Positions 5,349 to 20,195 of a DNA stretch of 21,800 bases are shown here, piece by piece (the first letter of the stretch is position 1; the number at the start of each line of letters is the position of its first letter). The notes beneath the pieces were generated by a model. It did not search any database. It was given only the letters and a program-made list of their open reading frames with translations, and was not told where the DNA came from. Location of the stretch: NCBI GenBank assembly GCA_964493715.1, contig CAZBPC010000057.1, forward strand, positions 1 through 21,800, written 5' to 3'. The DNA comes from an uncultured archaeon. GTDB lineage: Archaea; Asgardarchaeota; Lokiarchaeia; Sigyniarchaeales; SOKP01. The translations under genes were made by a program, and so were the position numbers.

Positions 5349-7106
5349 GTGTGTGCCCAAGAAAGTACTGAGGGTGATAGAAACAACCCTTATTCATTTG
5401 ATGATTATTTATTCGTTAAAAATCAATTTAATTTCTATAGAGATGATGATTTTTTAAAAGCATTACTTAAAAAGTATACGGGTTCAGAATTCGAGAGAAT
5501 AGATGCAGAACTTAAGGAGATGTCGGATAAAATTTCCTATCGTTGGAGAGATTTAGCAGATGAGGCAACTCGGCTTGAAAATCGAGCTAAGTGTACGGTA
5601 GTACAACATTATGATGCTCATAATCATAGAATAGATAGGATAAAAAGAGCTGCTGAAACCGAGCAGCTCGAAAAGGAGATATTTAGTTTAGGCTTATTCG
5701 ATCCTAAAAGAAATACCGCTTGGAGTAGATTTGCGAAAATGTTTCTCCTATATCAGTTGGGAGAGATGGGAGTGATGTGTCCTGTTGCTTGTACCCATGG
5801 AATGGTTTGGTTAATGCAAAAATATGAAGATGAATTAAGTTCAGAAGCAAAAAAGTGTCTAGCAGCCGTTCGAGATGGCATCAATGGAGAATACAGTTTA
5901 GGTTCACAATTTATTAGTGAAATTCAAGGAGGGAGTGATGTAGCAGCTAATTTAGTAGAAGCTGTTTATGAAGAGGAAGAGGGTCCTGATGGAATTTCAA
6001 ATTGCTGGCGTTTATACGGTCAAAAATTCTTCTGTTCTGCAATGCAAGCAGATTATTCTATCGTCACAGCAAAACCTAAGAATGTTCCATCATCAACAAG
6101 AGTCGCTGCATTTGCTGTTCCAGCTTGGCTTCCCGGAAATAAAGAAAAGGAAAAAAGAAATTCATATACTATTGATCGACTCAAACAAAAGCTAGGTACG
6201 GCTGAACTCCCCACAGCAGAGATAACTTACAATGGTGCAGTCGCATATCCCGTAGGTCCTTATGAAAAAGGATTAGCAGATGTCGTTGGAATTGTCCTTT
6301 CTCTATCGAGACTTCATATTGCTTTTGGCATGGCAGCAGGAGGACTTCGTGTTGCAAGGGAAGCTATATTATATGCACAGTATAGAAGTGCCTTTGGAGT
6401 TCCAATTGCATCTTTTCCATTAATGATGACTCAGATTAATGATTTAAAACATGCTGTCATGAGAACAACGGCAGGTGGGTTTAAATTATATTCAGAGTTT
6501 ATTCATTTTGGTGAGAATTTAATTAGTGGGATAAGAGAATTACAAAAAATTGATGATATTGAAGAACGAAAACGACGATTCAGATTACGTGAGCTTATAA
6601 TGCTATGTAAGATTGCTGTTGCTGATGAAGCTCCCGCACTGATACGTACGGCAATTTCATTTTTTGGTGGTCATGGAATAATGGAGGATTTCATAGCATT
6701 ACCGCGCTTCCATCGAGATTCCATGATAATGGAACTTTGGGAAGGTCCCAGAAATGTTCTACTCACTCAAATTCATCGTGATCTCCAAAGAGTCGCTGAA
6801 TGGTATTCTGCAGAAGAATTTATCAGAGACGTGCTGGAGGGAGCCGATAGTAGTATCGTAGAACCTTTAGCAAAAAGGTTTGCAAGGATTGTTTCTCATG
6901 ATAGCCTTTTAAGAAGCGACGAAATAACGTTAAATATTTGCAAGGATTGGCAAGAACTTTCTAATAAGATTGTTAGAGTATATCAAGAACAAGCTTTAGT
7001 TGATCTTAATTACGAAGAAAAACCATTGAAATTTTCAAAATTATTCCGGAAATTTAAAAAGAGATTAAGCGAGAAAAGAGAAGAAGACCTTGTAGTTCTT
7101 GTATAA
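5349..7106 (+). CDS. Acyl-CoA dehydrogenase, AidB-like subfamily
   Basis: GVMCPVACT, SEIQGGSDV, WRLYGQKFFCS, RLKQKLGT, GGHGIMED, RDSMIMELWEGPRNV correspond to AidB/ACAD motifs; GTG start. Confidence 0.88.
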   Translation: MCAQESTEGDRNNPYSFDDYLFVKNQFNFYRDDDFLKALLKKYTGSEFERIDAELKEMSDKISYRWRDLADEATRLENRAKCTVVQHYDAHNHRIDRIKRAAETEQLEKEIFSLGLFDPKRNTAWSRFAKMFLLYQLGEMGVMCPVACTHGMVWLMQKYEDELSSEAKKCLAAVRDGINGEYSLGSQFISEIQGGSDVAANLVEAVYEEEEGPDGISNCWRLYGQKFFCSAMQADYSIVTAKPKNVPSSTRVAAFAVPAWLPGNKEKEKRNSYTIDRLKQKLGTAELPTAEITYNGAVAYPVGPYEKGLADVVGIVLSLSRLHIAFGMAAGGLRVAREAILYAQYRSAFGVPIASFPLMMTQINDLKHAVMRTTAGGFKLYSEFIHFGENLISGIRELQKIDDIEERKRRFRLRELIMLCKIAVADEAPALIRTAISFFGGHGIMEDFIALPRFHRDSMIMELWEGPRNVLLTQIHRDLQRVAEWYSAEEFIRDVLEGADSSIVEPLAKRFARIVSHDSLLRSDEITLNICKDWQELSNKIVRVYQEQALVDLNYEEKPLKFSKLFRKFKKRLSEKREEDLVVLV

Positions 7107-7111
7107 AAATT

Positions 7112-7780
7112 TTATATTTTTTCAAATTTTCTTCCACAATTTTTACAAAAGTGGTAGTTGTAGTTTCCTGCAGTACCACAAAAGGTACAATATCTAATCC
7201 TATATTTATCATCTTTCAAAGCCTGAGAAGGTTTTGGTGTTTGGTAAGTATTTTGAGGTGGATTAGATGTTTGAAGAGGGATTGATGCTTGAGGGGGAGC
7301 AAATTTCTGGGGTTGGGGTGTTTGTATTAGTTGTGAATCAACTTTGATTGGTTGTCTAGGCTTAAATTCCTCCACTTGTCGAGTTCTTCCTCCCGGAATT
7401 TTGTCGAAATCAAAGAATTCTTCATTTGTCCTCCCGGATAGATAAGTAGGAGTGATGTTCAATTCATTAACCCAATTATTAATTAATTTTTTTGGCGTTA
7501 ACCATTGAATTCCATAACCAAGTGCAAGTGAAACTTCAATTCTGATATATGTCTTAGAATCTCTGAGATTAAAGGAAAAATCGATTATATAATCCTCTCC
7601 GTTTGATGTTAATGACATTCCACGATGAATTTTTAATGTCTTCACTAATTTATCAGATGATACGCTTTCTTGTTCGATATTTCCTTTATTCCTATGCCAA
7701 AAAGTTGATGTTTGTTCATATATCTCTTCCAAAGGTGAACTTTTAATAAAATAGAAATATTTATGACCCATTTTTTTCAC
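7112..7780 (-). CDS. Hypothetical protein with Pro/Gln-rich linker and C-terminal zinc ribbon
   Basis: CTFCG...FCKNCG at the C-terminus; QTPQPQKFAPPQASIPLQTSNPPQ low-complexity linker; start may be ATG at 7771. Confidence 0.8.
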   Translation of the reverse strand: MKKMGHKYFYFIKSSPLEEIYEQTSTFWHRNKGNIEQESVSSDKLVKTLKIHRGMSLTSNGEDYIIDFSFNLRDSKTYIRIEVSLALGYGIQWLTPKKLINNWVNELNITPTYLSGRTNEEFFDFDKIPGGRTRQVEEFKPRQPIKVDSQLIQTPQPQKFAPPQASIPLQTSNPPQNTYQTPKPSQALKDDKYRIRYCTFCGTAGNYNYHFCKNCGRKFEKI

Positions 7781-7839
7781 GCTCTAATATAATAGAGATC
7801 AAAGTTTCATTAATGAATTTAAGCCTAAATCACTTTTTT

Positions 7840-8679
7840 TTATTCGTGTGGTAATAGAATTATTAAGAAGATGATCAGTAATATACCACCTATAAAGATT
7901 AATGCTTGAATAATAGATTTTTTTAGATTTTTCTCCTTTATAAGTTCAGGCATAAGTTCGGTACTAGCTATGTATATAAATCCTCCACCGCTAAATGCTA
8001 AAAAGAACATATTAAACAAAACAAATGGACTTGAAAAAATTAATGCTACTAAACCACCAATTAAAGCAACCATTGCACTAATGAAATTGAATATGAGAGC
8101 TTTCTTCTTTGTAAAACCACCATATAAGAGAATCCCGAAATCACCAATTTCTTGCGGTAGTTCGTGAAATAACACAGCAAGCGTAATCACAATACCCGTT
8201 GCGGGTCCGTTTAAAAATGCTACCATAATTATGATCCCATCTAAGAAGTTATGTAGACCATCACCAATTAAATTAAGGAGTGCAAAACTCTTTATGTTAC
8301 TCCCTTTTTCCAAGACTTTACTAGAACCTTCAGTTAGATTATCATAACAAACTAATTGATTTTCGTGTTCATGAGCGTGACCATGAAACCAATAAATGAA
8401 TCGTTCTAAAATGAAAAAAGTCACGAATCCGAAAATAACATTAACAAATATGAAAGCGTCAGTAATTCCAGCTCCTTCAGCATTAAGTTCTTCAAGATGG
8501 TGTAAGGATTCTGGTATTAGATCAAATAATGCTGTAGCAAGTATCGAACCCGTAGCAAATGCGACAAGGATAAATAGTATTTCATCAAGGGTTCTTTCTT
8601 TCAAGGAGATCATAAACACTCCAATTAGACTTACACAACCAATAAGAAAAATCATTAAAAATCCTAATATTGGATCCAT
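7840..8679 (-). CDS. ZIP-family divalent metal transporter
   Basis: GDGLHNFLDG (TM4), HELPQEIGD (TM5), His-rich loop HGHAHEHE, about eight TM segments. Confidence 0.95.
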   Translation of the reverse strand: MDPILGFLMIFLIGCVSLIGVFMISLKERTLDEILFILVAFATGSILATALFDLIPESLHHLEELNAEGAGITDAFIFVNVIFGFVTFFILERFIYWFHGHAHEHENQLVCYDNLTEGSSKVLEKGSNIKSFALLNLIGDGLHNFLDGIIIMVAFLNGPATGIVITLAVLFHELPQEIGDFGILLYGGFTKKKALIFNFISAMVALIGGLVALIFSSPFVLFNMFFLAFSGGGFIYIASTELMPELIKEKNLKKSIIQALIFIGGILLIIFLIILLPHE

Positions 8680-8691
8680 AATATCACTAAT

Positions 8692-9138
8692 CTAAGAAGA
8701 TTTCTTTAAAAATTTAATTCCTTCCGAATCAAGACGTTCATTGCACATCCGATCACATATAGAAATGAATTGATTATCTCTCGGGACTCGAATAAACTTC
8801 ACCTTCTCATATTTCCCTACAAGTTTATGTATTTCTTTATTCAATTTCTTCAAATGGGGATAATTAATTTTCCAGTTTCCATTAATTTGTTGTATAGCAA
8901 GATTACTATCTGAAAAAAGTTCTATTTCCCCTTTAGAATATTCTTGAGCTAATTTTAATGCATTAGTAATAGCTGTATATTCAGCAACGTTATTGGTAGT
9001 TTTTCCAATATATTCGCAATTCTCATGGAGAATTTTATTATTATATACAAAAATAAAGGCACTTGCTGAAGGACCCGGATTACCCCGAGAAGCTCCATCG
9101 ACGTAAACTTTTAGAAAACTTAATCCCGTCTTACTCAT
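8692..9138 (-). CDS. rnhA: Ribonuclease HI (archaeal/actinobacterial-like type 1)
   Basis: YVDGASRGNPGP, TNNVAEY, FSDS and terminal D (ICDRMCN) supply the four acidic catalytic residues; 12-bp gap to the ZIP gene suggests an operon. Confidence 0.93.
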   Translation of the reverse strand: MSKTGLSFLKVYVDGASRGNPGPSASAFIFVYNNKILHENCEYIGKTTNNVAEYTAITNALKLAQEYSKGEIELFSDSNLAIQQINGNWKINYPHLKKLNKEIHKLVGKYEKVKFIRVPRDNQFISICDRMCNERLDSEGIKFLKKSS

Positions 9139-9183
9139 AATATTCTTATTCTCAAGATTTAAAAGGTCAGATTTTATAGTTTC

Positions 9184-9207
9184 TATTATTATATTATATT
9201 ATATTAT
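9184..9207. repeat. Short (ATATT)n microsatellite
   Basis: tattattatattatattatattat read directly; abuts the left edge of the 98-bp repeat copy A. Confidence 0.7.
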
Positions 9208-9341
9208 GCTAATAAATCTATAAATTTGACCACATTTTCATTTGGTTTATTTAAGTTTATTAGTATTTGAAATTGAATTTTAGTTTTATGTCTCAAAATT
9301 TTTCTTTTTTCCTGATTAGGTCGAAACCAAACTTCACCTTG
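9204..9341 (-). pseudogene. Possible 3'-end remnant of an unknown gene
   Basis: 45 open codons with no ATG (QGEVWFRPNQEKRKILRHKTKIQFQILINLNKPNENVVKFIDLLA) ending in TAA exactly where similarity with copy B ends; copy B ends in TAG at the equivalent position. Confidence 0.35.
9205..9302 (+). repeat. 98-bp direct repeat, copy A (partner 12394-12491)
   Basis: Manual gap-free alignment gives 84/98 identical positions (86%). Confidence 0.9.
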
Positions 9342-9412
9342 CTACTTTTATGAATTATCTATAAATCCATTTCAGCATTTTGTATTTTTAATCAAGAATA
9401 CCTTGAGTTATA

Positions 9413-12091
9413 TTATTTTGATGCAGATTTTTTATCAATTATTGTGATTTGCCCCGTCGACCCATTAACCCGTAATAATTGTCCTGTTTTTATAAGAGTG
9501 GTTGCATTCACTACACTTACCACGGCGGGAATATTATGTTCCCTTGCAATAACGGCCCCATGCACCATCATCCCTCCTACTTCCATAATTAAGCCTTTAG
9601 CAATGAGAAATAGGGGCGTCCATGAGGGATCAGTTGCTGGACATACTAAAATCTCTCCTGACCTCAGTTCAGACTTATAAGGGTTATGAACTATTCGTGC
9701 ATATCCCTCTACTACTCCAGGAGAGACAGGGGAACCTATTAATAGTCCGGGTTTTTTTGAAGATAATTGTTCATCTGAAACTGAACTAGTATAAAAAACT
9801 CTACCATCATTTGCAATCACACGTGGAACCAATTTCCGCAGCTTTTCACGATCAAATGATTCCTTACGTTCCTCAATTATTTTTTTCCAATTTTGCGTTT
9901 CTTCATTTAACATTTTTTCTATTTCCTCGTAATGTATGAAAAAGACATCACTTGGTTTACTGATAATCCCGTCATTGACAAATAAACTACCTAATTTTAA
10001 GAATAAAGAATGAAAAATCCAGAACATTCGTACTAAAACGAATTTAGGATATTCCCTAAATCCCGCTAAATTTCTTATACGGTAGAAGAAAAAGTTCAAT
10101 AGTTTTGCTTTGAAATACCCAAATCGAGAATTTCTCACTAAAGAGAATAGACGATGATATGCGATATAGGTTGATTTCCTCCCCTTTTTAAATAATGAAT
10201 CAGGACTTTCATCATCAGGTAAGAGCATATATGATTTAATTGTATCTATAACTACTTTAGGTTGTTCATTCCATCTTTCTCGACCTAAGTCAATTTCTGC
10301 TAATCCGCGGAATCCATAAGCAGATATAAATTCTTTAATGCCTTTTTGAGCGATCTTAGGTAATGATTCATTTAAAAAATTCATTGTTAATTCATCGGAA
10401 TCTGTTTGTTTGAAGAGAAATAACAATTCTGGATCTTTTTTTAAAACTGCTGCTGTTTTTCCAAGCATTAAGTTCATACTTGTGGTTGGATTAAATGATA
10501 AACTTCGCGTAAATTCTAACGGAAGAGAAGTGTTTCCTGTTAAGATTGAGAGAATTGACAATGGAAGGTACCCCAATGCTATTATGGGAATTACCGAAGT
10601 TAAAACATATTTTCCTGAACGTTCCATCCATTTTGTATAAAAATTAAAGATTTCTAAAGGAGTTGTTATTTTTTGACTTTTTTGTTGTATAAGATTAACG
10701 AATTTCTCGGTGAATTGATATCTATTTTCACGCTCATTGATGGGATCCAATATCATTTTTCTAAATTGTGGTAACATGAAAATTAAAAATCTAATTAAAT
10801 GCTTTATGGCTGAAAAAGGGGGTCGTTTCTTCTTTTGAAGAAATTTCTCAGATAATAGTTGTTGGAATATTTCTAATGCAACAGGGTCTATGATTATGAG
10901 CAGCCTAGTTGCGATACTCCTAAGTCCTACATGCGTTAACGCTGATGTAAAGTCCATCCAGATTCTTTCACCATTGTGACGTAAAAACTTTTGGGTTTTA
11001 TAGGTTAGTTTAGATGCGAATAATTTTGCGACGCTTAATATGAAATGAGTAATATTATCCCTCCCGAGTGGTGTCATTGGCTCTAACATTCCTTGCACAG
11101 CACCAAACGATAGATAAACTTGAGGAGGTCCGTTTAAAAAGTCTTTAGTTAGGGGATACAGAGTAGTTACAGGTCTAGATTGAATTAAATAAAGAGTTCC
11201 ATCTGCAAAAGCCCATTCGATATCTTGCGGACTATGAAAGTAATTTTCAACTTTTTTCCCAAGAATTGTTAACTGTTTAACTTGTAATTCATCTAAACTA
11301 CTTTTTTTATGAACATCTCTAGAATCTGGTTGGATCCCACCTTCTAATTTAGGTAATATTGAAAATTTCTTTGACCCTACCTTTTGATCAATAATTTTAT
11401 TTGCTATTGTATCTATGACGTAATGATCTGGCTCAATTTGACCAGATACTAGAGCTTCTCCTAAACCGAAAGTTGCATCAATAACATATTCTGATCTTTT
11501 TTCTGTTAGTGGATTGACTGTAAAAAGTACGCCTGAAATTTCGCTCGCTATTAACTGTTGAACTACAACTGCAAGAGCAAGATTTTCGGAACTAATATGA
11601 TTAATTCTCCGATAATATATTGCACGAGCGGTAAAGAGACTACTCATACATTCAATAATTGATGGAATTAAACTCTTAGAATCTACAACATTTAAAATTG
11701 TATCATGTTGTCCTGCATAGGATAGATTTATTGTATCTTCAGTCGTTGCTGATGATCTCACTGCTACGGGTGGAGATCCCAATTTCTTATACGCATCAGA
11801 AATACCCTTGAGTAATTCTGGAGGTAGATTACACTCGGCAAAGCGATCTCGAATCGTTTTAGATAATAATTCTAATGCATTATAATCATTGGATGGACTT
11901 TCTTTTAGTTTTTCAGAGATAAATCTATCTAAATTATTTTCTTCTATAAAGAGTTTATAAAACTCTGTTGTAATAATAAACCCTGGTGGAACAGGAAATC
12001 CTGCTTTAGCCAGCAGCGCAAGATTTAATCCTTTGCCTCCCGCAAGCTCAACTGTTAAATTGTTTTCATCAAAAAATCGAATCATATTCAT
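9413..12091 (-). CDS. PEP-utilising enzyme with rifampicin-phosphotransferase (Rph)/PigC domain order
   Basis: N-terminal ATP-grasp (GGKGLNL, VAVRSSATTED, SYAGQHDT, GLGEALVSG, QDIEWA, QSRPVT), large central helical domain (YGFRGLAEIDL), C-terminal His-swivel domain (TDPSWTPLF, GGMMVHGAVIARE). Confidence 0.9.
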   Translation of the reverse strand: MNMIRFFDENNLTVELAGGKGLNLALLAKAGFPVPPGFIITTEFYKLFIEENNLDRFISEKLKESPSNDYNALELLSKTIRDRFAECNLPPELLKGISDAYKKLGSPPVAVRSSATTEDTINLSYAGQHDTILNVVDSKSLIPSIIECMSSLFTARAIYYRRINHISSENLALAVVVQQLIASEISGVLFTVNPLTEKRSEYVIDATFGLGEALVSGQIEPDHYVIDTIANKIIDQKVGSKKFSILPKLEGGIQPDSRDVHKKSSLDELQVKQLTILGKKVENYFHSPQDIEWAFADGTLYLIQSRPVTTLYPLTKDFLNGPPQVYLSFGAVQGMLEPMTPLGRDNITHFILSVAKLFASKLTYKTQKFLRHNGERIWMDFTSALTHVGLRSIATRLLIIIDPVALEIFQQLLSEKFLQKKKRPPFSAIKHLIRFLIFMLPQFRKMILDPINERENRYQFTEKFVNLIQQKSQKITTPLEIFNFYTKWMERSGKYVLTSVIPIIALGYLPLSILSILTGNTSLPLEFTRSLSFNPTTSMNLMLGKTAAVLKKDPELLFLFKQTDSDELTMNFLNESLPKIAQKGIKEFISAYGFRGLAEIDLGRERWNEQPKVVIDTIKSYMLLPDDESPDSLFKKGRKSTYIAYHRLFSLVRNSRFGYFKAKLLNFFFYRIRNLAGFREYPKFVLVRMFWIFHSLFLKLGSLFVNDGIISKPSDVFFIHYEEIEKMLNEETQNWKKIIEERKESFDREKLRKLVPRVIANDGRVFYTSSVSDEQLSSKKPGLLIGSPVSPGVVEGYARIVHNPYKSELRSGEILVCPATDPSWTPLFLIAKGLIMEVGGMMVHGAVIAREHNIPAVVSVVNATTLIKTGQLLRVNGSTGQITIIDKKSASK

Positions 12092-12214
12092 CTATGAAAT
12101 TAATTAAATGGCATAAAATTAACATTATGGCTTATGTGTCAAAAAGGTTTTAAAGAATTTATTTATAAAATAATCTGATCGTATAAGTTCACTCTTATAT
12201 TTAAAACTAGTTTA

Positions 12215-12228
12215 AAACTCTTAGTATA
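12215..12228 (+). repeat. 14-bp direct repeat aaactcttagtata (partner 13699-13712)
   Basis: Exact match read by eye; both copies are preceded by ttt(a) and followed within a few bases by caacta. Confidence 0.6.
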
Positions 12229-12284
12229 ATTCCAACTACAATATTAATAGAAAAAATTCAAAATCGCTTAAGAAATAATATAAA

Positions 12285-12393
12285 TTTTATCTCGGGTTTA
12301 TCAAAATATTGAGCAATGTTATCGTTAATGATTTTGGCTAACTCTTCAAAAGGAGGAACTTGATCATCATAAGGTACTAGGAGGAGATGCTCC
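12285..12393 (-). pseudogene. Duplicated internal fragments of the ornithine decarboxylase gene
   Basis: 12298-12378 is identical to 15550-15630 (81 bp); 12285-12297 matches 15537-15549 at 10/13; 12382-12393 (aggagatgctcc) is identical to 15825-15836. Confidence 0.9.
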
Positions 12394-12491
12394 TATGTTA
12401 ATAATTCTATAAATTTAACAGCATTTTCTTTTTGTTTATTTCAGTTTATTATTATTTGAAATTGGATTTGAGTTTCATGTTTCAAGATTTT
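12394..12491 (+). repeat. 98-bp direct repeat, copy B (partner 9205-9302)
   Basis: 84/98 identity, no gaps; begins immediately after the 12-bp ODC fragment. Confidence 0.9.
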
Positions 12492-12767
12492 GGTATCAAT
12501 ATGACATTGTAGCTTGTTGCTAATTAAAAGAAATTTTTAGTATTAAATTTTTTATTACCACTTTCATTAATTTTAGAGATCCGTAGAAAAACTTTAATAC
12601 TAGATTACATTTGCAAAATACTAATAAAGTAATGATCAAATTAAAGGGATCATATATTTAAGACGATCTCCAAAAAAGAAAATATAATATGATTTTACTT
12701 TGTAATTTTCTTATTAAATATGCATAGAAGAAATTTAGGATAAAATTTTAAGCATAAGGTGTTAAAT

Positions 12768-13700
12768 ATGTTAAAAGATATGGATATTTTAAAAAAAAGC
12801 TCAGTAATTAATACCAATAATTTATGTGATGAAATGATGAACCAGAGTAGTCAGATCATTGATAATACTCCTCTTTTAGGCTCTAACAGAATTGAATCAA
12901 ATGATGATCAAGAAAAGCTCTATGAATTTTATAATTTATCGAGGTATTATGATTTGGCATTTGAAAGAGATGCGAATCGTGATATAGAGTTTTTCAGCAG
13001 ATGTTTCAAGCGTTATTCTAATATTAATATAAAACAATTATTAGAACCAGCATGCGGACCTGGTTTATTCTTGGAACACGCACCTAAATATGGATATAAT
13101 ATCTTAGGATATGACTTAAATCCCTCTATGATTGAATTTTCTAAGGAGAGATTAGAGAAGTGTAATATCCCTAGCCATATTGCTGATGCTGTTATTGGTA
13201 ATATGGTTAATGAGAAATTTGAGAAGAAATTTGATGCTGCTTTTATATGTATCAACAGTTTAGGATATTTAAGAAAAGATGTGGATATTGAATCACATTT
13301 TCATAATATTAGTAATTCTTTGAATGATGGTGGACTTTATATAATTGAATTGAGTTGCATGTGTAATGATATAAGAAATGAGAAAAAAATTGATGATATA
13401 TGGCATGTAAGTAAAGAAGGCATAGAACTTGAGGTGCAATGGGCAATAAATTGGTATGATTTTGAGAAAAGAATTAGACACGTCGATTTTAAAATGAAAG
13501 TTAATGATAATGGGAATAGTTTCGTTGTCGAAGAATCTCATGATCTTAGACTTTGGATCTATGATGAGTTTAAAGAATTTGCTAGATCAGCTGGATTCGA
13601 AATTGTTGGAATATTTAACCAAGATTATCAAGAAGTTTCAATACATGAACCAATTACTGGTGAACTAGGAGCTTTATTCTTTATATTGAAGAAAATTTAA
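12768..13700 (+). CDS. Class I SAM-dependent methyltransferase (small-molecule type)
   Basis: LLEPACGPG (motif I), GYDLNPSMIEF, FDAAFICINSLGYL, LNDGGLYIIEL, beta-rich cap. ATG 12768 chosen from AAGGTG at 12756-12761; the track gives GTG 12759. Confidence 0.9.
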   Translation: MLKDMDILKKSSVINTNNLCDEMMNQSSQIIDNTPLLGSNRIESNDDQEKLYEFYNLSRYYDLAFERDANRDIEFFSRCFKRYSNINIKQLLEPACGPGLFLEHAPKYGYNILGYDLNPSMIEFSKERLEKCNIPSHIADAVIGNMVNEKFEKKFDAAFICINSLGYLRKDVDIESHFHNISNSLNDGGLYIIELSCMCNDIRNEKKIDDIWHVSKEGIELEVQWAINWYDFEKRIRHVDFKMKVNDNGNSFVVEESHDLRLWIYDEFKEFARSAGFEIVGIFNQDYQEVSIHEPITGELGALFFILKKI

Positions 13701-13748
13701 ACTCTTAGTATAGCAAATTCAACTAATTAACAGATTTATATATATTCT

Positions 13749-15125
13749 CTAGCTTTTTGTGTTACTTTTTTTCATTTTTTTTGAGATTTTACTTTCATTT
13801 CTTAGGGTTAGATCATAGAGCCACCTATAAACGGTAGAATTTTTCAAGTTTAATATTGGTTTAGTAGTTACTCTAACTTCTTTAATCATTGGTAACATGA
13901 CTATGACAATCACGATCCGAAAAATTCCTGAGATCAAAAATAAAAAATGATATCGGTTCATAAAAGTGATGGGGATGTAGGTAATTATGATGCTTCCTGC
14001 CAATCCTCCAATTAAAATAGCTACTCCTAATAAGACATTGTAGAAAGCAATATATGTACCCCTGTTTCTTCCTGGAATATTATCATAAATAAAATTTGAT
14101 GTTGCTAAATTAAAAGATGTCCACCCAATTCCTCCAAGCAATTGGGGTCCTAAGAGAATCCCTATTGGTGTATCGAAAAAGAGCCATAATACAGGGAGTA
14201 ATGGAATGAGAATTGCTCCAATTTGAAGTAATCGAACATTTCCAAGCTTATCTGATAATTTACCCAACAACGGAAAGATAAATAATGCAATAAAGGACGA
14301 AAACAGACTGATAATAATAAATATGGAGTAATCGAAATGTAACTCAGATAACATGTAGACAGAAAAAAATGGACCGGCAATCCATTGTCCTAATGTTAAT
14401 AAGGAAACAAATAATGTAAATTTTCCAAAGTTACTTTTTGGTATTTCCTTAATTATCGTGCTAAATTTAATATGATCAGCGACTTCAAAATAAAATGGAG
14501 GATAATAGTGTTTTGTAAAAAGTAAAGCAGAGACTCCACGTGTCAAAAACCCAAAAATGAATATCAAAATGAAACCAAACAGAATATTTCCTTGGAAATT
14601 AAACCAATCCAATAAATATGATAAGATTAAAATGCCCATTAAGGCAATCGCATTTGTTAAAAGATTACGTTTAGCAAAATATCTACCCCTGAAATTATCG
14701 GGAACTACATCTCCCATTACTGAAAACCAGGGAGGGTTCATTATCCCAGAAAATAACATGTAGAACAAAAAAAAAATTATCAAAATCCAAGGAAGAATCG
14801 TTGATAAAATTCCTAAGGAATATAATATTGCAATTATAAGGTAAAAGGGCCAAACACTTCCCATACCGATAATACCACTCATTAATACTGACTTTCTTGA
14901 ATTTTTCTCAATTCTGCGTGACCCAATAATTTGTCCTATTGGCGATAGTAAATTTCCCAGAGAGGATAGAATCCCAATTTGAAAAGGTGATGTATTAATA
15001 CTGAGTGCGAAAGGTACGATATAGTTATCAGAAAGCATGCTACTAAGTACTCCAAAAGATCCTTCTGCGATTGAAACTCGCATTGTTTTCTTTTTAAGAA
15101 TCTCATCATTATTAGGAGTATCCAT
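13749..15125 (-). CDS. MFS transporter
   Basis: About 12 TM segments, motif A-like GKLSDKLG, GDVVPDNFRGRYFA and its repeat YDNIPGRNRGTYIA. Confidence 0.92.
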   Translation of the reverse strand: MDTPNNDEILKKKTMRVSIAEGSFGVLSSMLSDNYIVPFALSINTSPFQIGILSSLGNLLSPIGQIIGSRRIEKNSRKSVLMSGIIGMGSVWPFYLIIAILYSLGILSTILPWILIIFFLFYMLFSGIMNPPWFSVMGDVVPDNFRGRYFAKRNLLTNAIALMGILILSYLLDWFNFQGNILFGFILIFIFGFLTRGVSALLFTKHYYPPFYFEVADHIKFSTIIKEIPKSNFGKFTLFVSLLTLGQWIAGPFFSVYMLSELHFDYSIFIIISLFSSFIALFIFPLLGKLSDKLGNVRLLQIGAILIPLLPVLWLFFDTPIGILLGPQLLGGIGWTSFNLATSNFIYDNIPGRNRGTYIAFYNVLLGVAILIGGLAGSIIITYIPITFMNRYHFLFLISGIFRIVIVIVMLPMIKEVRVTTKPILNLKNSTVYRWLYDLTLRNESKISKKMKKSNTKS

Positions 15126-15167
15126 TAGAAAATCAACTAATAAACTAATTAATAAATGAATAAAAAA

Positions 15168-16304
15168 TTAAGTATTAATATGGAGCACTTTTGCTGGAGG
15201 AAATCCATTAAAATGAGTAGCTGAAGCATTCGTGTAAGCACCAATATTTTCAGAATAAAGCAAATCTTCAACATCTAGATCTGGTAGTTTTTCATCAAGA
15301 GATATTTTGTCTAAAGCATCACAAGTAGGTCCTACAACCGCGCTATCCATTAGAACTCCATCCTTGAATGATTTGAAATGATACTGAATGTGATCAAAGA
15401 TAGCTCCAGAAAATGTATTATAGACCCCATCATTAATATAATAATATGTTTTACCGTTTCTTGTTGCTTTACCGTTAATTTCTGCTACCAAAGTTGCACT
15501 TGTTGCGACTAAAAAGCGTCCAGGTTCCGCAATGATTTTTATCCCCGGCTTATCAAAATATTGAGCAATGTTATCGTTAATGATTTTGGCTAACTCTTCA
15601 AAAGGAGGAACTTGATCATCATAAGGTACTGGAAATCCTCCTCCAATATCTACTATAGATAATTCATTTCCAATCTGTTTAGATTGTTCAAAAAGATCAT
15701 GGGCAATCTTAAACGCTTGGACATAATTATCAAAATTGCTGCATTGGCTACCTACATGAAAACTTAGCCCTTCTACTTTAAAACCCATCTTATTAGCATA
15801 TTTTATCAAGTCAATACAAATATCAGGAGATGCTCCAAATTTAGTTGATAATTCCACAACAGAGCCCGTGTTTGGGACATCAATTCGCAGAATTAAGCGA
15901 CTGTGTTTACAATGTTTAGCAACTTTCTCAATTTCAATATAATTATCAAACGTCATTTGAAGGAAGTAGTTATTGAGATTTTTTAAAGAATCTATACGTT
16001 TTACAGGATTCGCATATATCACGTTTTCATTCATAAAATGACTCTTCCTCTTTTGATTCCCTTCAATCACGTCATGGACGATCATGAATTCTTCCCACGA
16101 CGCAACATCGAATCCAGAACCCATTTTATACATTGTTCTAACAATTTCTGATTCTGGATTAGCTTTTATTGCGAAATAAGGTCGCACTCGAGGAAGATTT
16201 GAGCAAAAAAGGTTATAGTTATTCCTTATTATTTGATGATCAATTACCAGCGATGGAGTTCCAAATTTACTTGAAAGTTCTAACAGTTTAGACTTGTCTG
16301 TCAT
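15168..16304 (-). CDS. Ornithine (or lysine/ornithine) decarboxylase, PLP fold type III (eukaryotic-ODC-like)
   Basis: PYFAIKAN (PLP Lys), GFDVAS, IYANPVK, KFGA, SFHVGSQ, DIGGGF, AEPGRF, YYINDGVY, GPTCDALD, GAYT, FNGF. Confidence 0.93.
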   Translation of the reverse strand: MTDKSKLLELSSKFGTPSLVIDHQIIRNNYNLFCSNLPRVRPYFAIKANPESEIVRTMYKMGSGFDVASWEEFMIVHDVIEGNQKRKSHFMNENVIYANPVKRIDSLKNLNNYFLQMTFDNYIEIEKVAKHCKHSRLILRIDVPNTGSVVELSTKFGASPDICIDLIKYANKMGFKVEGLSFHVGSQCSNFDNYVQAFKIAHDLFEQSKQIGNELSIVDIGGGFPVPYDDQVPPFEELAKIINDNIAQYFDKPGIKIIAEPGRFLVATSATLVAEINGKATRNGKTYYYINDGVYNTFSGAIFDHIQYHFKSFKDGVLMDSAVVGPTCDALDKISLDEKLPDLDVEDLLYSENIGAYTNASATHFNGFPPAKVLHINT

Positions 16305-16486
16305 AATATTTTATTTTCGTGAATTTGCATGAACTAATATTACATGGTAAAAAACTTTTTCCACTTAGTAGAAAGGATAAAAAAGCAAATGAATTTTAGG
16401 AGTCCATTTCCCTACAAGTTTACTACTTAAATCCTATAATCATTACCCTTATCGGGTTATTTAAGAGCGTTTTCGAATTTGTTCAA

Positions 16487-16503
16487 AATGAATGAGATTC
16501 ATT
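16487..16503. promoter_or_regulatory. Perfect 7-3-7 inverted repeat AATGAAT-gag-ATTCATT, possible operator
   Basis: Read directly; lies in the divergent intergenic region between the ODC and SIR2-TPR genes. Confidence 0.35.
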
Positions 16504-16558
16504 AACTTTTTAACATTGTATTCGTTTTTTCTTAAAAAAATTAAAGAAATATCTCATA

Positions 16559-18997
16559 ATGAAAGAAATTTATCTTGAAAGCTATATTATAAAAGTTCCA
16601 GAAGAAGAGAAAGTAAAGGAGATTGCAAACCTATTTTCTGAAAAACGTGCTTACACCTTTTTAGTGGGTGCTGGGATCTCAATGGATCCTCCATCTTGTG
16701 TACCTTCTGCAAGAATGTTTGTAAATGAATTATTAAAGTATTATGCTCCTGATAACGAAATTGAGGATTTAACCAGGCTTGATTCGCTGAGATATGAATT
16801 ATTAGTAGAAAAGATACAAGATTTATTTGATAAAGACATCAAATTTTTAGACTACTTGGATGAGGTAAAAGAACCGAACGCTAATCATGTTTTCTTAGCT
16901 AACATGATAATGAGATATAACTACGTTGTAACAACCAATTTCGACTTTCTCATTGAAATAGCACTGAAGAAAAAGCTAACACTATTTCCCATGTTTCATG
17001 ATTATCATAAAAAAGTCATAGCCATCATCACAAAAGATGATTACGAGAAAGATGTGCGATTTCAATTTCCTATCATTAAGATACATGGTTCAAAATGGGA
17101 TTGCATTAAAGGGAGATTAACTAAGAATTCATTAATTACTACAATTAGTGCTCTTGGAAAAGATAGGGAAAAAGGTAAAACTTTTGCTATTGAACCATAC
17201 AAGAAGAAGCTAATTGATTCGATCATGCAATACCGAGATCTTATAGTCATGGGGTATTCTGGTAGTGATGATTTCGACATTGGTCCTATGTTAAGAGAAT
17301 TAACAGGTATTAAAAGGTTGATTTGGATAGATCATGATCAGGATCTTGAAACTGAGGATATTTATAAATATAAACCCATTAAAGTCTCAAATTTATCTTC
17401 GGATTTAGATCTTTCGAAACATGATAACATGCTATTAGAAATTGCTACTGAAAATAAAATAGAAGTACATAAAATAAAAACGAATACGATACATTTTGTG
17501 AAGACTAGATTAGCTCCCATATTTAATGAAAAATTCGATACTCTTAAGGAAGATCCTTCAAAACAAGTTCTTAGTTTTAGGGATTTTATGAAAGAGAATC
17601 ATTTTAATGCTACAGAATCCTCCAAGAATAGGTTTGCTCACGAAATTTATACTGAACTAGGAGAAACTGTGCTTGCTGAAAGAACTGCGCTGGAAGGTTT
17701 AACTCTTTCAAAGAAAGAATATGATGATATTAACGAGATGTATTTCACAAATGCGTTAGGATTAATTTATTCCACTAAAGGGGAATTAGATAAAGCGCTT
17801 GAAAAATTTAATGAAGCCTTGCAATTAACAACAATATCAAATCAGAAAAATGAGAAGATTGGAGTTCTTATTAATATCGGAGAGAATTATCGGAAAAAAG
17901 GGGATTTTAAAAATGCAATAAAATACACAACCCAAGCTTTAAGTCTTATGAGTGAAGATACTCCTAACTTGTTAAAATTTTCGATATTAAACAGTTTGGG
18001 AGTAATATATCGAGCAAATGGGGATGTTCAGAATGCAATTAAGAATATTGAATTGGCTCTAGAAATTGCTCAAATTATGGGAGATTTATCGAGAAAGGCC
18101 TTATGCTATAATAATCTAGCAGGAATTTACGTATCACAAGGACTCTTAGATCCTGCCTTGAAAAAAGCTTCTGAAGCGCTTAAAATAGATGAATTACTTG
18201 GAGATTTAGAAGATATGGCTTCCAATTTGAATACAATCGGTAATATTTATAGAATCGCTGGAAATTATCAAGAAGCATTGAAGAATTTAGAGCGAGCATA
18301 CCAAACAGCGGACAAAATTAAAAAATTAAGAATTAAGGCACTTGCAGGGAATGCCATAGGAGTGATTTACTTTAACCTCGGAAAGATTGATGATGCTATG
18401 AGGAAGTATGATGAATCCTACGAAATAAGAAAAATTATGGGAGATTTATCGGGTCAAGCAACTAGCTTGAACAATATGGGATTAATTTATAGGGCAAAAC
18501 GAGATTATAATAAAGCTTTCGAATTATTCAATAAATCAATTGAAATAGCTGAAAATATTGGAGAGAAAACGCATTTAGCAGTGCGTTATGGAAACATTGC
18601 TTCAATATATGAAGCTAGAAGAGAGTTTCAAAATGCGCTCGAAGTTTACAGGAAAGCACTCGCAATCGAAAGATCGCAACAAAATTTGCATGGAGTAGCT
18701 AAGCAACTTTTAAATATCGGAGGAATTTTGGGAGATCTTGCCCAACAGGATGAATGCATTCAAAAATATACAGAAGCACTCAATATCATGGAAGATCTAA
18801 AGATTAAACCAGGAATTGCGAATGCGCTCAATAATTTAGGTACAGTATATTATAAATTCAAAAAAGATTATGAGAAGTCTATTAATCTCTTAGAAAGAGC
18901 TCTTGAAATCTATAAAGAAATAGATGATACTCAAATGCTATTAACAACTCAGAAAAATCTTAACTTTATTAAAATGCAATATGAAAGCCAAAATTGA
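16559..18997 (+). CDS. SIR2-like domain + TPR-array protein
   Basis: SIR2_2-type motifs FLVGAGIS, PNANH, VTTNFD, KIHGS, MGYSGSD (approx. 16650-17340); ten clear ~40-aa TPR units (e.g. SLNNMGLIYRAKRDYNKAFELFNKSIEI) from approx. 17740 to 18920. Confidence 0.92.
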   Translation: MKEIYLESYIIKVPEEEKVKEIANLFSEKRAYTFLVGAGISMDPPSCVPSARMFVNELLKYYAPDNEIEDLTRLDSLRYELLVEKIQDLFDKDIKFLDYLDEVKEPNANHVFLANMIMRYNYVVTTNFDFLIEIALKKKLTLFPMFHDYHKKVIAIITKDDYEKDVRFQFPIIKIHGSKWDCIKGRLTKNSLITTISALGKDREKGKTFAIEPYKKKLIDSIMQYRDLIVMGYSGSDDFDIGPMLRELTGIKRLIWIDHDQDLETEDIYKYKPIKVSNLSSDLDLSKHDNMLLEIATENKIEVHKIKTNTIHFVKTRLAPIFNEKFDTLKEDPSKQVLSFRDFMKENHFNATESSKNRFAHEIYTELGETVLAERTALEGLTLSKKEYDDINEMYFTNALGLIYSTKGELDKALEKFNEALQLTTISNQKNEKIGVLINIGENYRKKGDFKNAIKYTTQALSLMSEDTPNLLKFSILNSLGVIYRANGDVQNAIKNIELALEIAQIMGDLSRKALCYNNLAGIYVSQGLLDPALKKASEALKIDELLGDLEDMASNLNTIGNIYRIAGNYQEALKNLERAYQTADKIKKLRIKALAGNAIGVIYFNLGKIDDAMRKYDESYEIRKIMGDLSGQATSLNNMGLIYRAKRDYNKAFELFNKSIEIAENIGEKTHLAVRYGNIASIYEARREFQNALEVYRKALAIERSQQNLHGVAKQLLNIGGILGDLAQQDECIQKYTEALNIMEDLKIKPGIANALNNLGTVYYKFKKDYEKSINLLERALEIYKEIDDTQMLLTTQKNLNFIKMQYESQN

Positions 18998-19058
18998 GTA
19001 ATTAATCAAAATTTTTAAAACTTATAAAAGATAGAAAAATCTAAAGGTGAATTAAATA

Positions 19059-20195
19059 ATGGTTATATCAGACTTATATGAGAAATTGCGTCTATTGTTG
19101 AGTAAGGGGGAGAATGTTATTGGATTGCCAAAACATGAAGTAACATTGAAATTATTGAAAAACATGTTTACTCAACAAGAAGCTGAAATTTTAACTTCAA
19201 GTTTTAGTAAAGTCAGTACTCCAATGAATGTAAAAAAGATTTCAAGGCTATCAAATATAGCTATTGATGATTTGACAGATATACTTGAAGACATGTATCA
19301 TAAAGGAAAATTAATAAAGTTAGGCACTCTGTATGTCTTATTACCTTATCTACCCGGTGGTTTTGAAGTATATTTCACCACTAATCGGGATGACCCAGAG
19401 AGAATGAAGAAGGCCGCAGAAGCACACTTGGAATTATTTAAATTAGGATTTCCTTATGAATTAAGTGCTAGCGATTATACGATTTATCGCGTAATTCCTA
19501 CAATAAAACCCACTGAAAGATTGATTGAAATAGAAAATTCAATGGAATTGACACATCAAATCTTACCTTTTGAAATTTTAAAAGAATATTTAGAAAAGGC
19601 AAATCCGAAAGTATATGCCGTCGTTCCATGTAGTTGTAGAAATGCCGCAAAGTTAGCTGGAGAGCCATGTAAACAAACAAATGAAAATTTTTGTGTTACT
19701 ACGGGAACCTTGGCAAAAATGGTTATTGAACAAGGAGTTGGACGTGAAGTTTCTTTAGATGAATTAATGGATGTAATGGAAAGGGCAGAAAAGGAAGGTT
19801 TAGTTCATGAAACATTTAACATGCAAGATACGGCTACGTTTGTGTGCAATTGTTGTTCATGCTGTTGTGGGTTTTTAAAATCTGTAAAGGAACTTAACAA
19901 TTACAATTCTATTACAAAATCCAATTTTGAACCCCATGTTCAACAAGAAGAGTGTACGTTGTGTGAAAAATGTTTGGAAATTTGCCCAATGGGAGCAATA
20001 TATCATCATTGGCCTCACAAAGAAGATTCATCTGACAATGAAATCAAAATTCGACTAGATCGTTGCATAGGATGTGGGTTATGTGCTTCTAATTGTCCCG
20101 AAGAAGCTATTGTTTTAGAAAAGGTTCGAGAAGTTGTACCTGTTAAAAGTCAGATTGACTTGCTTACTCAAAGAGCTGCAGGGAAAACTCATTAA
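19059..20195 (+). CDS. Cys-rich 4Fe-4S dicluster protein with putative N-terminal winged-helix
   Basis: PCSCR, CNCCSCCCG, CTLCEKCLEICP, CIGCGLCASNCP; RBS AAGGTGA about 8 nt upstream. Confidence 0.88.
   Translation: MVISDLYEKLRLLLSKGENVIGLPKHEVTLKLLKNMFTQQEAEILTSSFSKVSTPMNVKKISRLSNIAIDDLTDILEDMYHKGKLIKLGTLYVLLPYLPGGFEVYFTTNRDDPERMKKAAEAHLELFKLGFPYELSASDYTIYRVIPTIKPTERLIEIENSMELTHQILPFEILKEYLEKANPKVYAVVPCSCRNAAKLAGEPCKQTNENFCVTTGTLAKMVIEQGVGREVSLDELMDVMERAEKEGLVHETFNMQDTATFVCNCCSCCCGFLKSVKELNNYNSITKSNFEPHVQQEECTLCEKCLEICPMGAIYHHWPHKEDSSDNEIKIRLDRCIGCGLCASNCPEEAIVLEKVREVVPVKSQIDLLTQRAAGKTH

Follow-up and report, generated by a model that had tools for sequence, protein, structure and literature searches.

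Templated filler DNA at illegitimate junctions arises by microhomology-mediated end joining or by template switching of the MMBIR/FoSTeS type; to our knowledge, no templated-filler enzymes have been described in Asgard archaea. The locus presented here resembles such filler in holding short pieces that keep the orientation and order of a template close by, at the edge of an insert, with more than one snippet, few untemplated bases between them and an imperfect patch of homology at one end. It differs in that its main snippet, at 81–99 nt, is long, and in that the mechanism is read here from anatomy only. Like gene remnants of segmental duplication, the locus shows homology to a neighbouring intact gene, a lost reading frame and neutral-looking drift; unlike them, it keeps only 111 nt in two pieces, with no other duplicated part clearly detectable. 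With trans-encoded antisense small RNAs and pseudogene-derived antisense regulators it has in common an extended perfect complementarity to an mRNA encoded elsewhere, but it is not conserved, and in the only relative open to this check it does not co-vary with its target. Direct repeats flank the block, as in a Campbell-type integrative element, but the block has no mobility gene. Finally, as in homology-facilitated illegitimate recombination of foreign DNA in bacteria (PMC3240628), one end appears homologous (the side of the RNase H gene and of a 98-nt repeat, D2) and the other illegitimate (the snippet side). The candidate for the homologous end is the left-hand repeat copy, D2-A, whose 14% divergence would fit a donor origin and in which a crossover is putative. 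That process has been described for linear DNA entering bacteria by competence or conjugation, whereas here both the donor and the route of uptake are hypothetical.

Two pieces of a decarboxylase gene lie in an intergenic spacer

The window is the whole stretch of DNA analysed, a 21.8-kb contig (C57) of 21,800 nt from a 3.68-Mb, 160-contig genome bin of an Asgard archaeon. Its archaeal nature is borne out by ribosomal protein L31e, a family that among the control genomes is matched in the four archaea alone. The genes and the gene-derived pieces are as follows.

9413..12091, minus strand: PEP-synthase / rifamycin-phosphotransferase-like enzyme of 892 aa, with PPDK_N and PEP-utilizers domains
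12194..12251, unstranded: possible third remnant, with weak collinear similarity (score 39) to 13680-13734, the 3' end of the methyltransferase gene and the adjoining spacer
12280..12297, minus strand: imperfect 18-nt patch at the left end of the homology, 13/18 identical to 15532-15549, which may be a microhomology or junction patch
12298..12378, minus strand: perfect 81-nt copy of decarboxylase codons (VPYDDQ...QYFD in translation), 0/81 mismatches to 15550-15630
12379..12381, unstranded: 3-nt linker (agg) between the gene-derived pieces
12382..12393, minus strand: another piece of the decarboxylase gene (GASP codons), matching 15825-15836 at every position and lying in a different frame from the 81-nt piece
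12759..15125: methyltransferase (12759-13700, plus strand) and MFS transporter (13749-15125, minus strand), which with the decarboxylase form an ancestral block common to relatives
15168..16304, minus strand: parent gene and template of both snippets, an intact lysine/ornithine decarboxylase-type PLP enzyme of 378 aa (Pfam Orn_Arg_deC_N and Orn_DAP_Arg_deC)

The snippet sits in a 667-nt spacer (12092-12758) between the 892-aa PPDK_N / PEP-utilizers gene and the SAM methyltransferase gene. Its perfect core has the same orientation as the parent segment and lies 3252 nt from it, start to start, exactly as the initial annotation had described. On the minus strand the block reads VPYDDQVPPFEELAKIINDNIAQYFDKPEIK at a position between the GGGF and EPGR motifs, and the gene has ...DKPGIK. 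Identity falls away abruptly on the left, again as previously noted: 3 of 13 positions mismatch in 12285-12297 and 5 of 18 in 12280-12297 against 15532-15549, while 12250-12279, compared ungapped with the gene, shows 11/30 matches, which is background (random mean 8.5). Because ungapped similarity further left is at background, the homologous block is 99 nt long (12280-12378). Within it the core is cleaner than the left patch (0/81 versus 5/18, p = 1.2e-4). A 13/18 match at the left border has P = 2e-4 for a random pair of 18-mers, and the right border is without clear microhomology.

The 12-mer that makes up the second piece, AGGAGATGCTCC, occurs at only two places in the 3.68-Mb genome, counting either strand, so the additional decarboxylase fragment reported earlier is real. 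The two gene-derived pieces are collinear, with 194 nt of gene missing between them and the linker in their place. For the possible third remnant, a score this high came up in 2 of 200 shuffles and in 4 of 300 chunks of the genome.

Among solved proteins, the parent gene product matches lysine/ornithine decarboxylases (2.8e-68) and eukaryotic ODCs (~1e-63) far ahead of diaminopimelate decarboxylases (1e-26), and by sequence comparison it belongs to the ornithine/lysine decarboxylase group. As none of the NCBIfam models reaches its cut-off, 'ODC' is used as a family-level name only. A second decarboxylase paralogue was rejected as the source of the snippet, the genome's other paralogues being distant (23–24%). 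The closest species of the genus, G011, has two decarboxylase-plus-MFS modules (contigs C16 and C64; loci L020 and L021) at 90% and 72% protein identity, so the module has been duplicated in some relatives; neither G011 decarboxylase fits the snippet flank better. A blastn search of the genome (word size 7, E <= 1) for further copies of the repeat found only the parent gene and D2-A, which rules out a dispersed repeat family. Separately, a 24-nt inverted repeat with 92% complementarity (10326-10349 / 12139-12162) links the 892-aa gene and its upstream spacer; it is probably due to chance (blastn E = 0.047).

Independent assemblies reproduce the arrangement

We considered whether the metagenome assembly could have produced the arrangement, by a chimeric join or by collapsing a repeat. 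The bin was built with k = 55, its 160 contigs overlap at their ends by 55 nt, it holds 12 odd exact 55-nt repeats spaced 155 nt, and an exact repeat of 81 nt exceeds k; each of these features would be compatible with an artefact. Against this, Logan contigs of all four of the other salt-marsh runs examined reach into the repeat from unique sequence on each side (for example 9000-12327 and 12349-13559, 0 differences), although at k = 31 such contigs break 30 nt into the repeat and so cannot span its 81 nt. Run X4 also contains a variant strain in which the snippet can be followed as far as 12374. The locus of a sister strain diverged by 3.9% (L041), separately assembled, spans the entire arrangement in the same layout, and because its copy and its gene differ, no repeat ambiguity arises there. 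A swapped resolution of the repeat would, moreover, truncate a decarboxylase gene that aligns full length with its relatives. The arrangement is not an assembly artefact, an explanation to which we give practically no weight, and the possibility of misassembly raised in the initial annotation is thereby contradicted.

Three other irregularities of the bin and runs were recorded. The twelve exact 55-nt direct repeats, 155 nt apart, lie on contigs C1, C6, C9, C15, C19, C21, C28, C29, C52, C71, C83 and C105 and are probably assembly artefacts, since their length equals the assembler's k. The segment 18997-21800 recurs at C70 1-2804 (2.8 kb, 98.9% identity), either as a strain variant kept in the bin or as a real duplication. 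In runs X1–X4, contigs of co-occurring organisms cease matching at 15172 and 15580, bracketing the 3' part of the decarboxylase gene, with unlike sequence beyond. These loose ends probably come from decarboxylase genes of related organisms, and the breaks reflect either mosaic decarboxylase alleles in the community or a mere drop in similarity.

The snippet abuts the edge of a lineage-specific insertion

Searching metagenome contigs with the methyltransferase protein returned five loci (L041–L045). Over 12,820 aligned columns (window 6878-19695) the sister-strain locus L041 shows 96.1% identity; it carries both the snippet and the 12-mer, and holds the ZIP, RNase H, PEP-synthase-like, methyltransferase, MFS and decarboxylase genes, with the snippet between the PEP-synthase-like and methyltransferase genes. 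In L044 (~80% identical) and L045 (85–87%), the RNase H gene directly adjoins the methyltransferase gene and the insert is absent; L042 and L043 start inside the same short spacer, also without it. The comparison defines three further features.

9208..12431 (from L044) or 9178-12487 (from L045), unstranded: lineage-specific insertion of ~3.2 kb, from BLAST coordinates and alignment
9205..9302, unstranded: D2-A, left-hand copy of a 98-nt repeat, upstream of the RNase H gene, 86% identical to D2-B
12394..12491, unstranded: D2-B, right-hand copy of the repeat, flanking the insertion and closer to the single copy of L044

Because the RNase H and methyltransferase genes lie side by side in more distant relatives, alignment identifies the PEP-synthase-like gene, the snippet and one D2 copy as a lineage-specific insertion of ~3.2 kb. 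The two D2 copies are direct repeats that flank the extra 3.2 kb and differ at 14 of 98 positions, in agreement with the adjoining 86% repeat of the initial annotation; in L044 only one D2-like element is present. Immediately next to D2-B, at the insertion's right-hand junction, lies the snippet; the breakpoint there is set by L044 and L045. One run contains a joint from 9198 to 12534 that resembles an empty-site relative, with only 21 letters on its shorter side, too short to count.

Across the other 40 genomes of the genus, neither the spacer nor the inserted gene found a match by DNA. A second copy of the snippet was found in none of the 41 genus genomes, the sole match being a relative's intact decarboxylase gene. 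One genome, G023, retains the gene series Fer4, TPR, decarboxylase, MFS, methyltransferase; upstream of the last of these, its homology ends near 12571, and it has no second decarboxylase piece. The insertion's only gene is the PEP-synthase-like enzyme, and no integrase, recombinase or other mobility gene was found in the block. Two other constructions were dropped. The 81-nt repeats do not bracket a mobile block, as the genes between them are ancestral synteny common to G023, L043 and L044. A diversity-generating retroelement with a template/variable pair, brought up by an RVT_3 match, was rejected because the gene encodes an ordinary RNase HI and the repeats show no difference from each other.

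The inserted gene has no orthologue that we could find in the genus or the order. Within the order its best full-length matches reach 29–32% identity, and a match at E <= 1e-50 exists in 63 of the 149 genomes; in a species-representative collection the best matches are Anaerolineae bacteria, at 39–43%. By sequence, the gene may be a bacterial-to-archaeal transfer that has since adapted to the host's base composition. None of the 60 homologue loci examined has a decarboxylase beside the gene, so the snippet did not travel with it, and joint arrival of the two was rejected.

In the sister strain the copy does not track its gene and diverges about like spacer DNA

A copy held identical to its gene would be expected to follow it in other strains, and the initial annotation had read the perfect core as a recent copy or as active homogenisation, with the snippet as a possible gene-conversion donor. 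The filled site is represented by two fully assembled strains and one contig of a variant strain. In L041 the copy differs from this genome's gene at 3 of 81 positions, all of them private changes to A (12339, 12368 and 12373), and the L041 gene has four other changes, leaving the L041 copy 7/81 off its own gene. Where this could be checked, in L041, the copy does not track the gene, and the homogenisation proposal is not supported. Nor did a copy that follows its own ODC turn up elsewhere: it is missing from L042–L045 and from the other 40 genomes of the genus.

Between the two strains, the differences number 4 in the 99 positions of the relic, 9 in 188 of the adjoining left-hand spacer and 93 in 2679 of the inserted gene, figures from one strain pair and thus of low power. 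The copy is neither conserved nor unusually fast, and it diverges about like the surrounding spacer. In the left patch, three or four of the mismatches are common to the copies of both strains and therefore date from the snippet's origin.

Strain comparison also reveals a strongly mosaic locus. The TPR gene differs between the two strains by 0.2%, the ZIP and RNase H genes by 1.6%, the inserted gene by 3.5%, and the methyltransferase, MFS and decarboxylase genes by 8–10%, with boundaries near 12600 and 16400; the L041 decarboxylase block is 8.5% divergent against 0.2% in the next gene. The L041 three-gene block was, on this sequence pattern, probably imported by recombination, and the time available for tracking may therefore have been short. 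The three changes in the core all arose on the L041 branch, an outcome with a 1-in-8 chance if the branches are equally long, so gene conversion may have taken place on this genome's branch.

The snippet has no coding capacity and matches no RNA family

The snippet has lost its coding capacity. On the gene's strand its frame reads T-stop-EHLLLVPYDDQVPPFEELAKIINDNIAQYFDKPEIKFILFLKRF-stop (T, stop, EHLLLVPYDD...KRF, stop), with stops on either side and without an ATG, GTG or TTG start codon. No open reading frame of at least 20 aa crosses the snippet on that strand, and the 12-mer and the 81-nt piece are in different frames. Rfam searches over 8600-16700 at E <= 1 gave only two chance snoRNA matches, below gathering scores, and a tRNA scan gave none. 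Folding of the snippet is not unusual (z-scores -0.46 and -1.19 for the two strands), nor is that of D2-B (-1.19 to +0.44 over the snippet and D2-B, each folded on both strands). Nothing in these searches points to a function for the stretch.

The initial annotation had raised a trans-encoded antisense RNA that would pair with decarboxylase mRNA and control polyamine synthesis; a variant would have the snippet act in sense, as part of the inserted gene's leader. The geometry stands: a plus-strand transcript would be perfectly complementary to the mRNA over 81 nt, the spacer is AT-rich with many TATA-like words, and the snippet is present in both filled-site strains. The biology fares worse, as the copy's absence from L042–L045 and the other 40 genus genomes argues against a regulator, as do the 7 mismatches in 81 (3 of them derived in the copy) between the L041 copy and its own target, a divergence rate about that of the flanking spacer, and the want of any Rfam match or of structure beyond that of shuffles. 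Among the literature matches listed for ornithine decarboxylase, antisense RNA and archaea, none describes such a system by its title. We regard a functional antisense RNA at this site as highly improbable.

The same low standing applies to a broader proposal, in which the snippet would be a newborn, strain-specific plus-strand antisense RNA that damps decarboxylase mRNA, or the 81-nt direct repeats would serve as a recombination switch; judged from the sequence, we give this very little credence. Were the first variant true, transcription would start in the divergent promoter region of the insertion and a regulator would have been caught just after its birth from filler DNA. Under the second, loop-out of the methyltransferase gene, the MFS gene and the decarboxylase tail would turn polyamine synthesis off in a subpopulation.

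A recombination scar is the probable origin of the stretch

In our judgement, the stretch is probably a young, non-functional recombination scar, and its anatomy suggests that template switching accompanied an illegitimate joining. The ancestor that this strain has in common with L041 gained ~3.2 kb in the spacer between the RNase H and methyltransferase genes. A broken end would have annealed to the decarboxylase gene at the imperfect 13/18 patch (12280-12297); synthesis would then have copied 81 nt, jumped 194 nt along the template and copied 12 more, and the end would have been joined beside D2-B, so that the illegitimate junction holds templated filler. D2-A, at 14% divergence, could reflect a diverged donor, in a one-ended homologous integration, or an earlier event.

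On this account identity drops abruptly because the patch is the annealing site and not a decayed copy, which is the reading that we prefer, although the microhomology interpretation of the 13/18 patch was made post hoc, after the data had been seen. The perfect core would likewise reflect a recent origin of the copy and no maintenance of its identity with the gene. An old relic with later conversion, suggested by a tblastn extension to 12261, was dropped as the main reading since ungapped identity left of 12280 is background. The core and D2 differ in divergence (0/81 versus 14/98; Fisher p = 1.5e-4), which counts against this account: a single event is insufficient unless D2-A was already diverged, the snippet came later or the core was later converted.

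That contrast also fits an old duplication followed by conversion, and a tandem duplication is the main competing origin, though to our minds an unlikely one. In it, ~12394-15836 would have been duplicated head to tail and the left copy gutted, losing the methyltransferase gene, the MFS gene and the decarboxylase tail and gaining the PEP-synthase-like gene, with the intact gene afterwards renewing the decarboxylase core through gene conversion; the product would still be non-functional. Three blocks are collinear between 9205-12393 and 12394-15836 (D2 at 86%, the weak match of 12194-12251 and the two decarboxylase pieces), their spacings are similar (3189 and 3252 nt), and a decarboxylase piece adjoining the start of D2-B is the junction expected of a tandem duplication. 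The similarity of 12194-12251 to 13680-13734 fits this origin better than filler, as a weak pointer. Against it, 9139-12400 contains no methyltransferase or MFS remnant at E <= 1e-3, and homology ends at D2, as 460 of 500 shuffles score as well as the real comparison of 9303-9412 with 12492-12758. Three further events (deletion, gene replacement and conversion) would also be needed; conversion into a copy without homology on its right side is awkward, and L041 shows no conversion.

The stretch is a scar under the filler and the tandem-duplication readings alike. The initial annotation's internally deleted ODC duplicate survives in part: there are two collinear pieces with 194 nt missing, no open frame and a perfect core, but they lie at the junction of a 3.2-kb insertion and are not a standalone, decayed duplicate of the whole gene.

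The snippet alone is of little importance, and the antisense control of polyamine synthesis proposed for it is not borne out by the comparisons. The modest value of the locus is as a dated and bracketed example of gene uptake by Asgard (Loki-type) archaea, with filled and empty sites known, with a junction that keeps its flanking repeats and copied filler, and with marked mosaicism (0.2% against 8–10% in adjacent genes).

Conserved elements near the insertion

Two observations concern the surroundings of the insertion. A palindrome-like word, ATGATYAAMTTAAAGRGATCRT, at 12640-12665 of the window, is conserved in each of the six aligned sequences (the window and L041–L045), where it precedes the methyltransferase gene by ~100 nt; from this conservation, it may be a regulator binding site. 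Beyond the decarboxylase gene, 16559-18997 encodes an 812-aa protein with a SIR2-like domain and long TPR arrays, 99.5% conserved in L041, whose architecture resembles that of defence or NAD-consuming sensor proteins.
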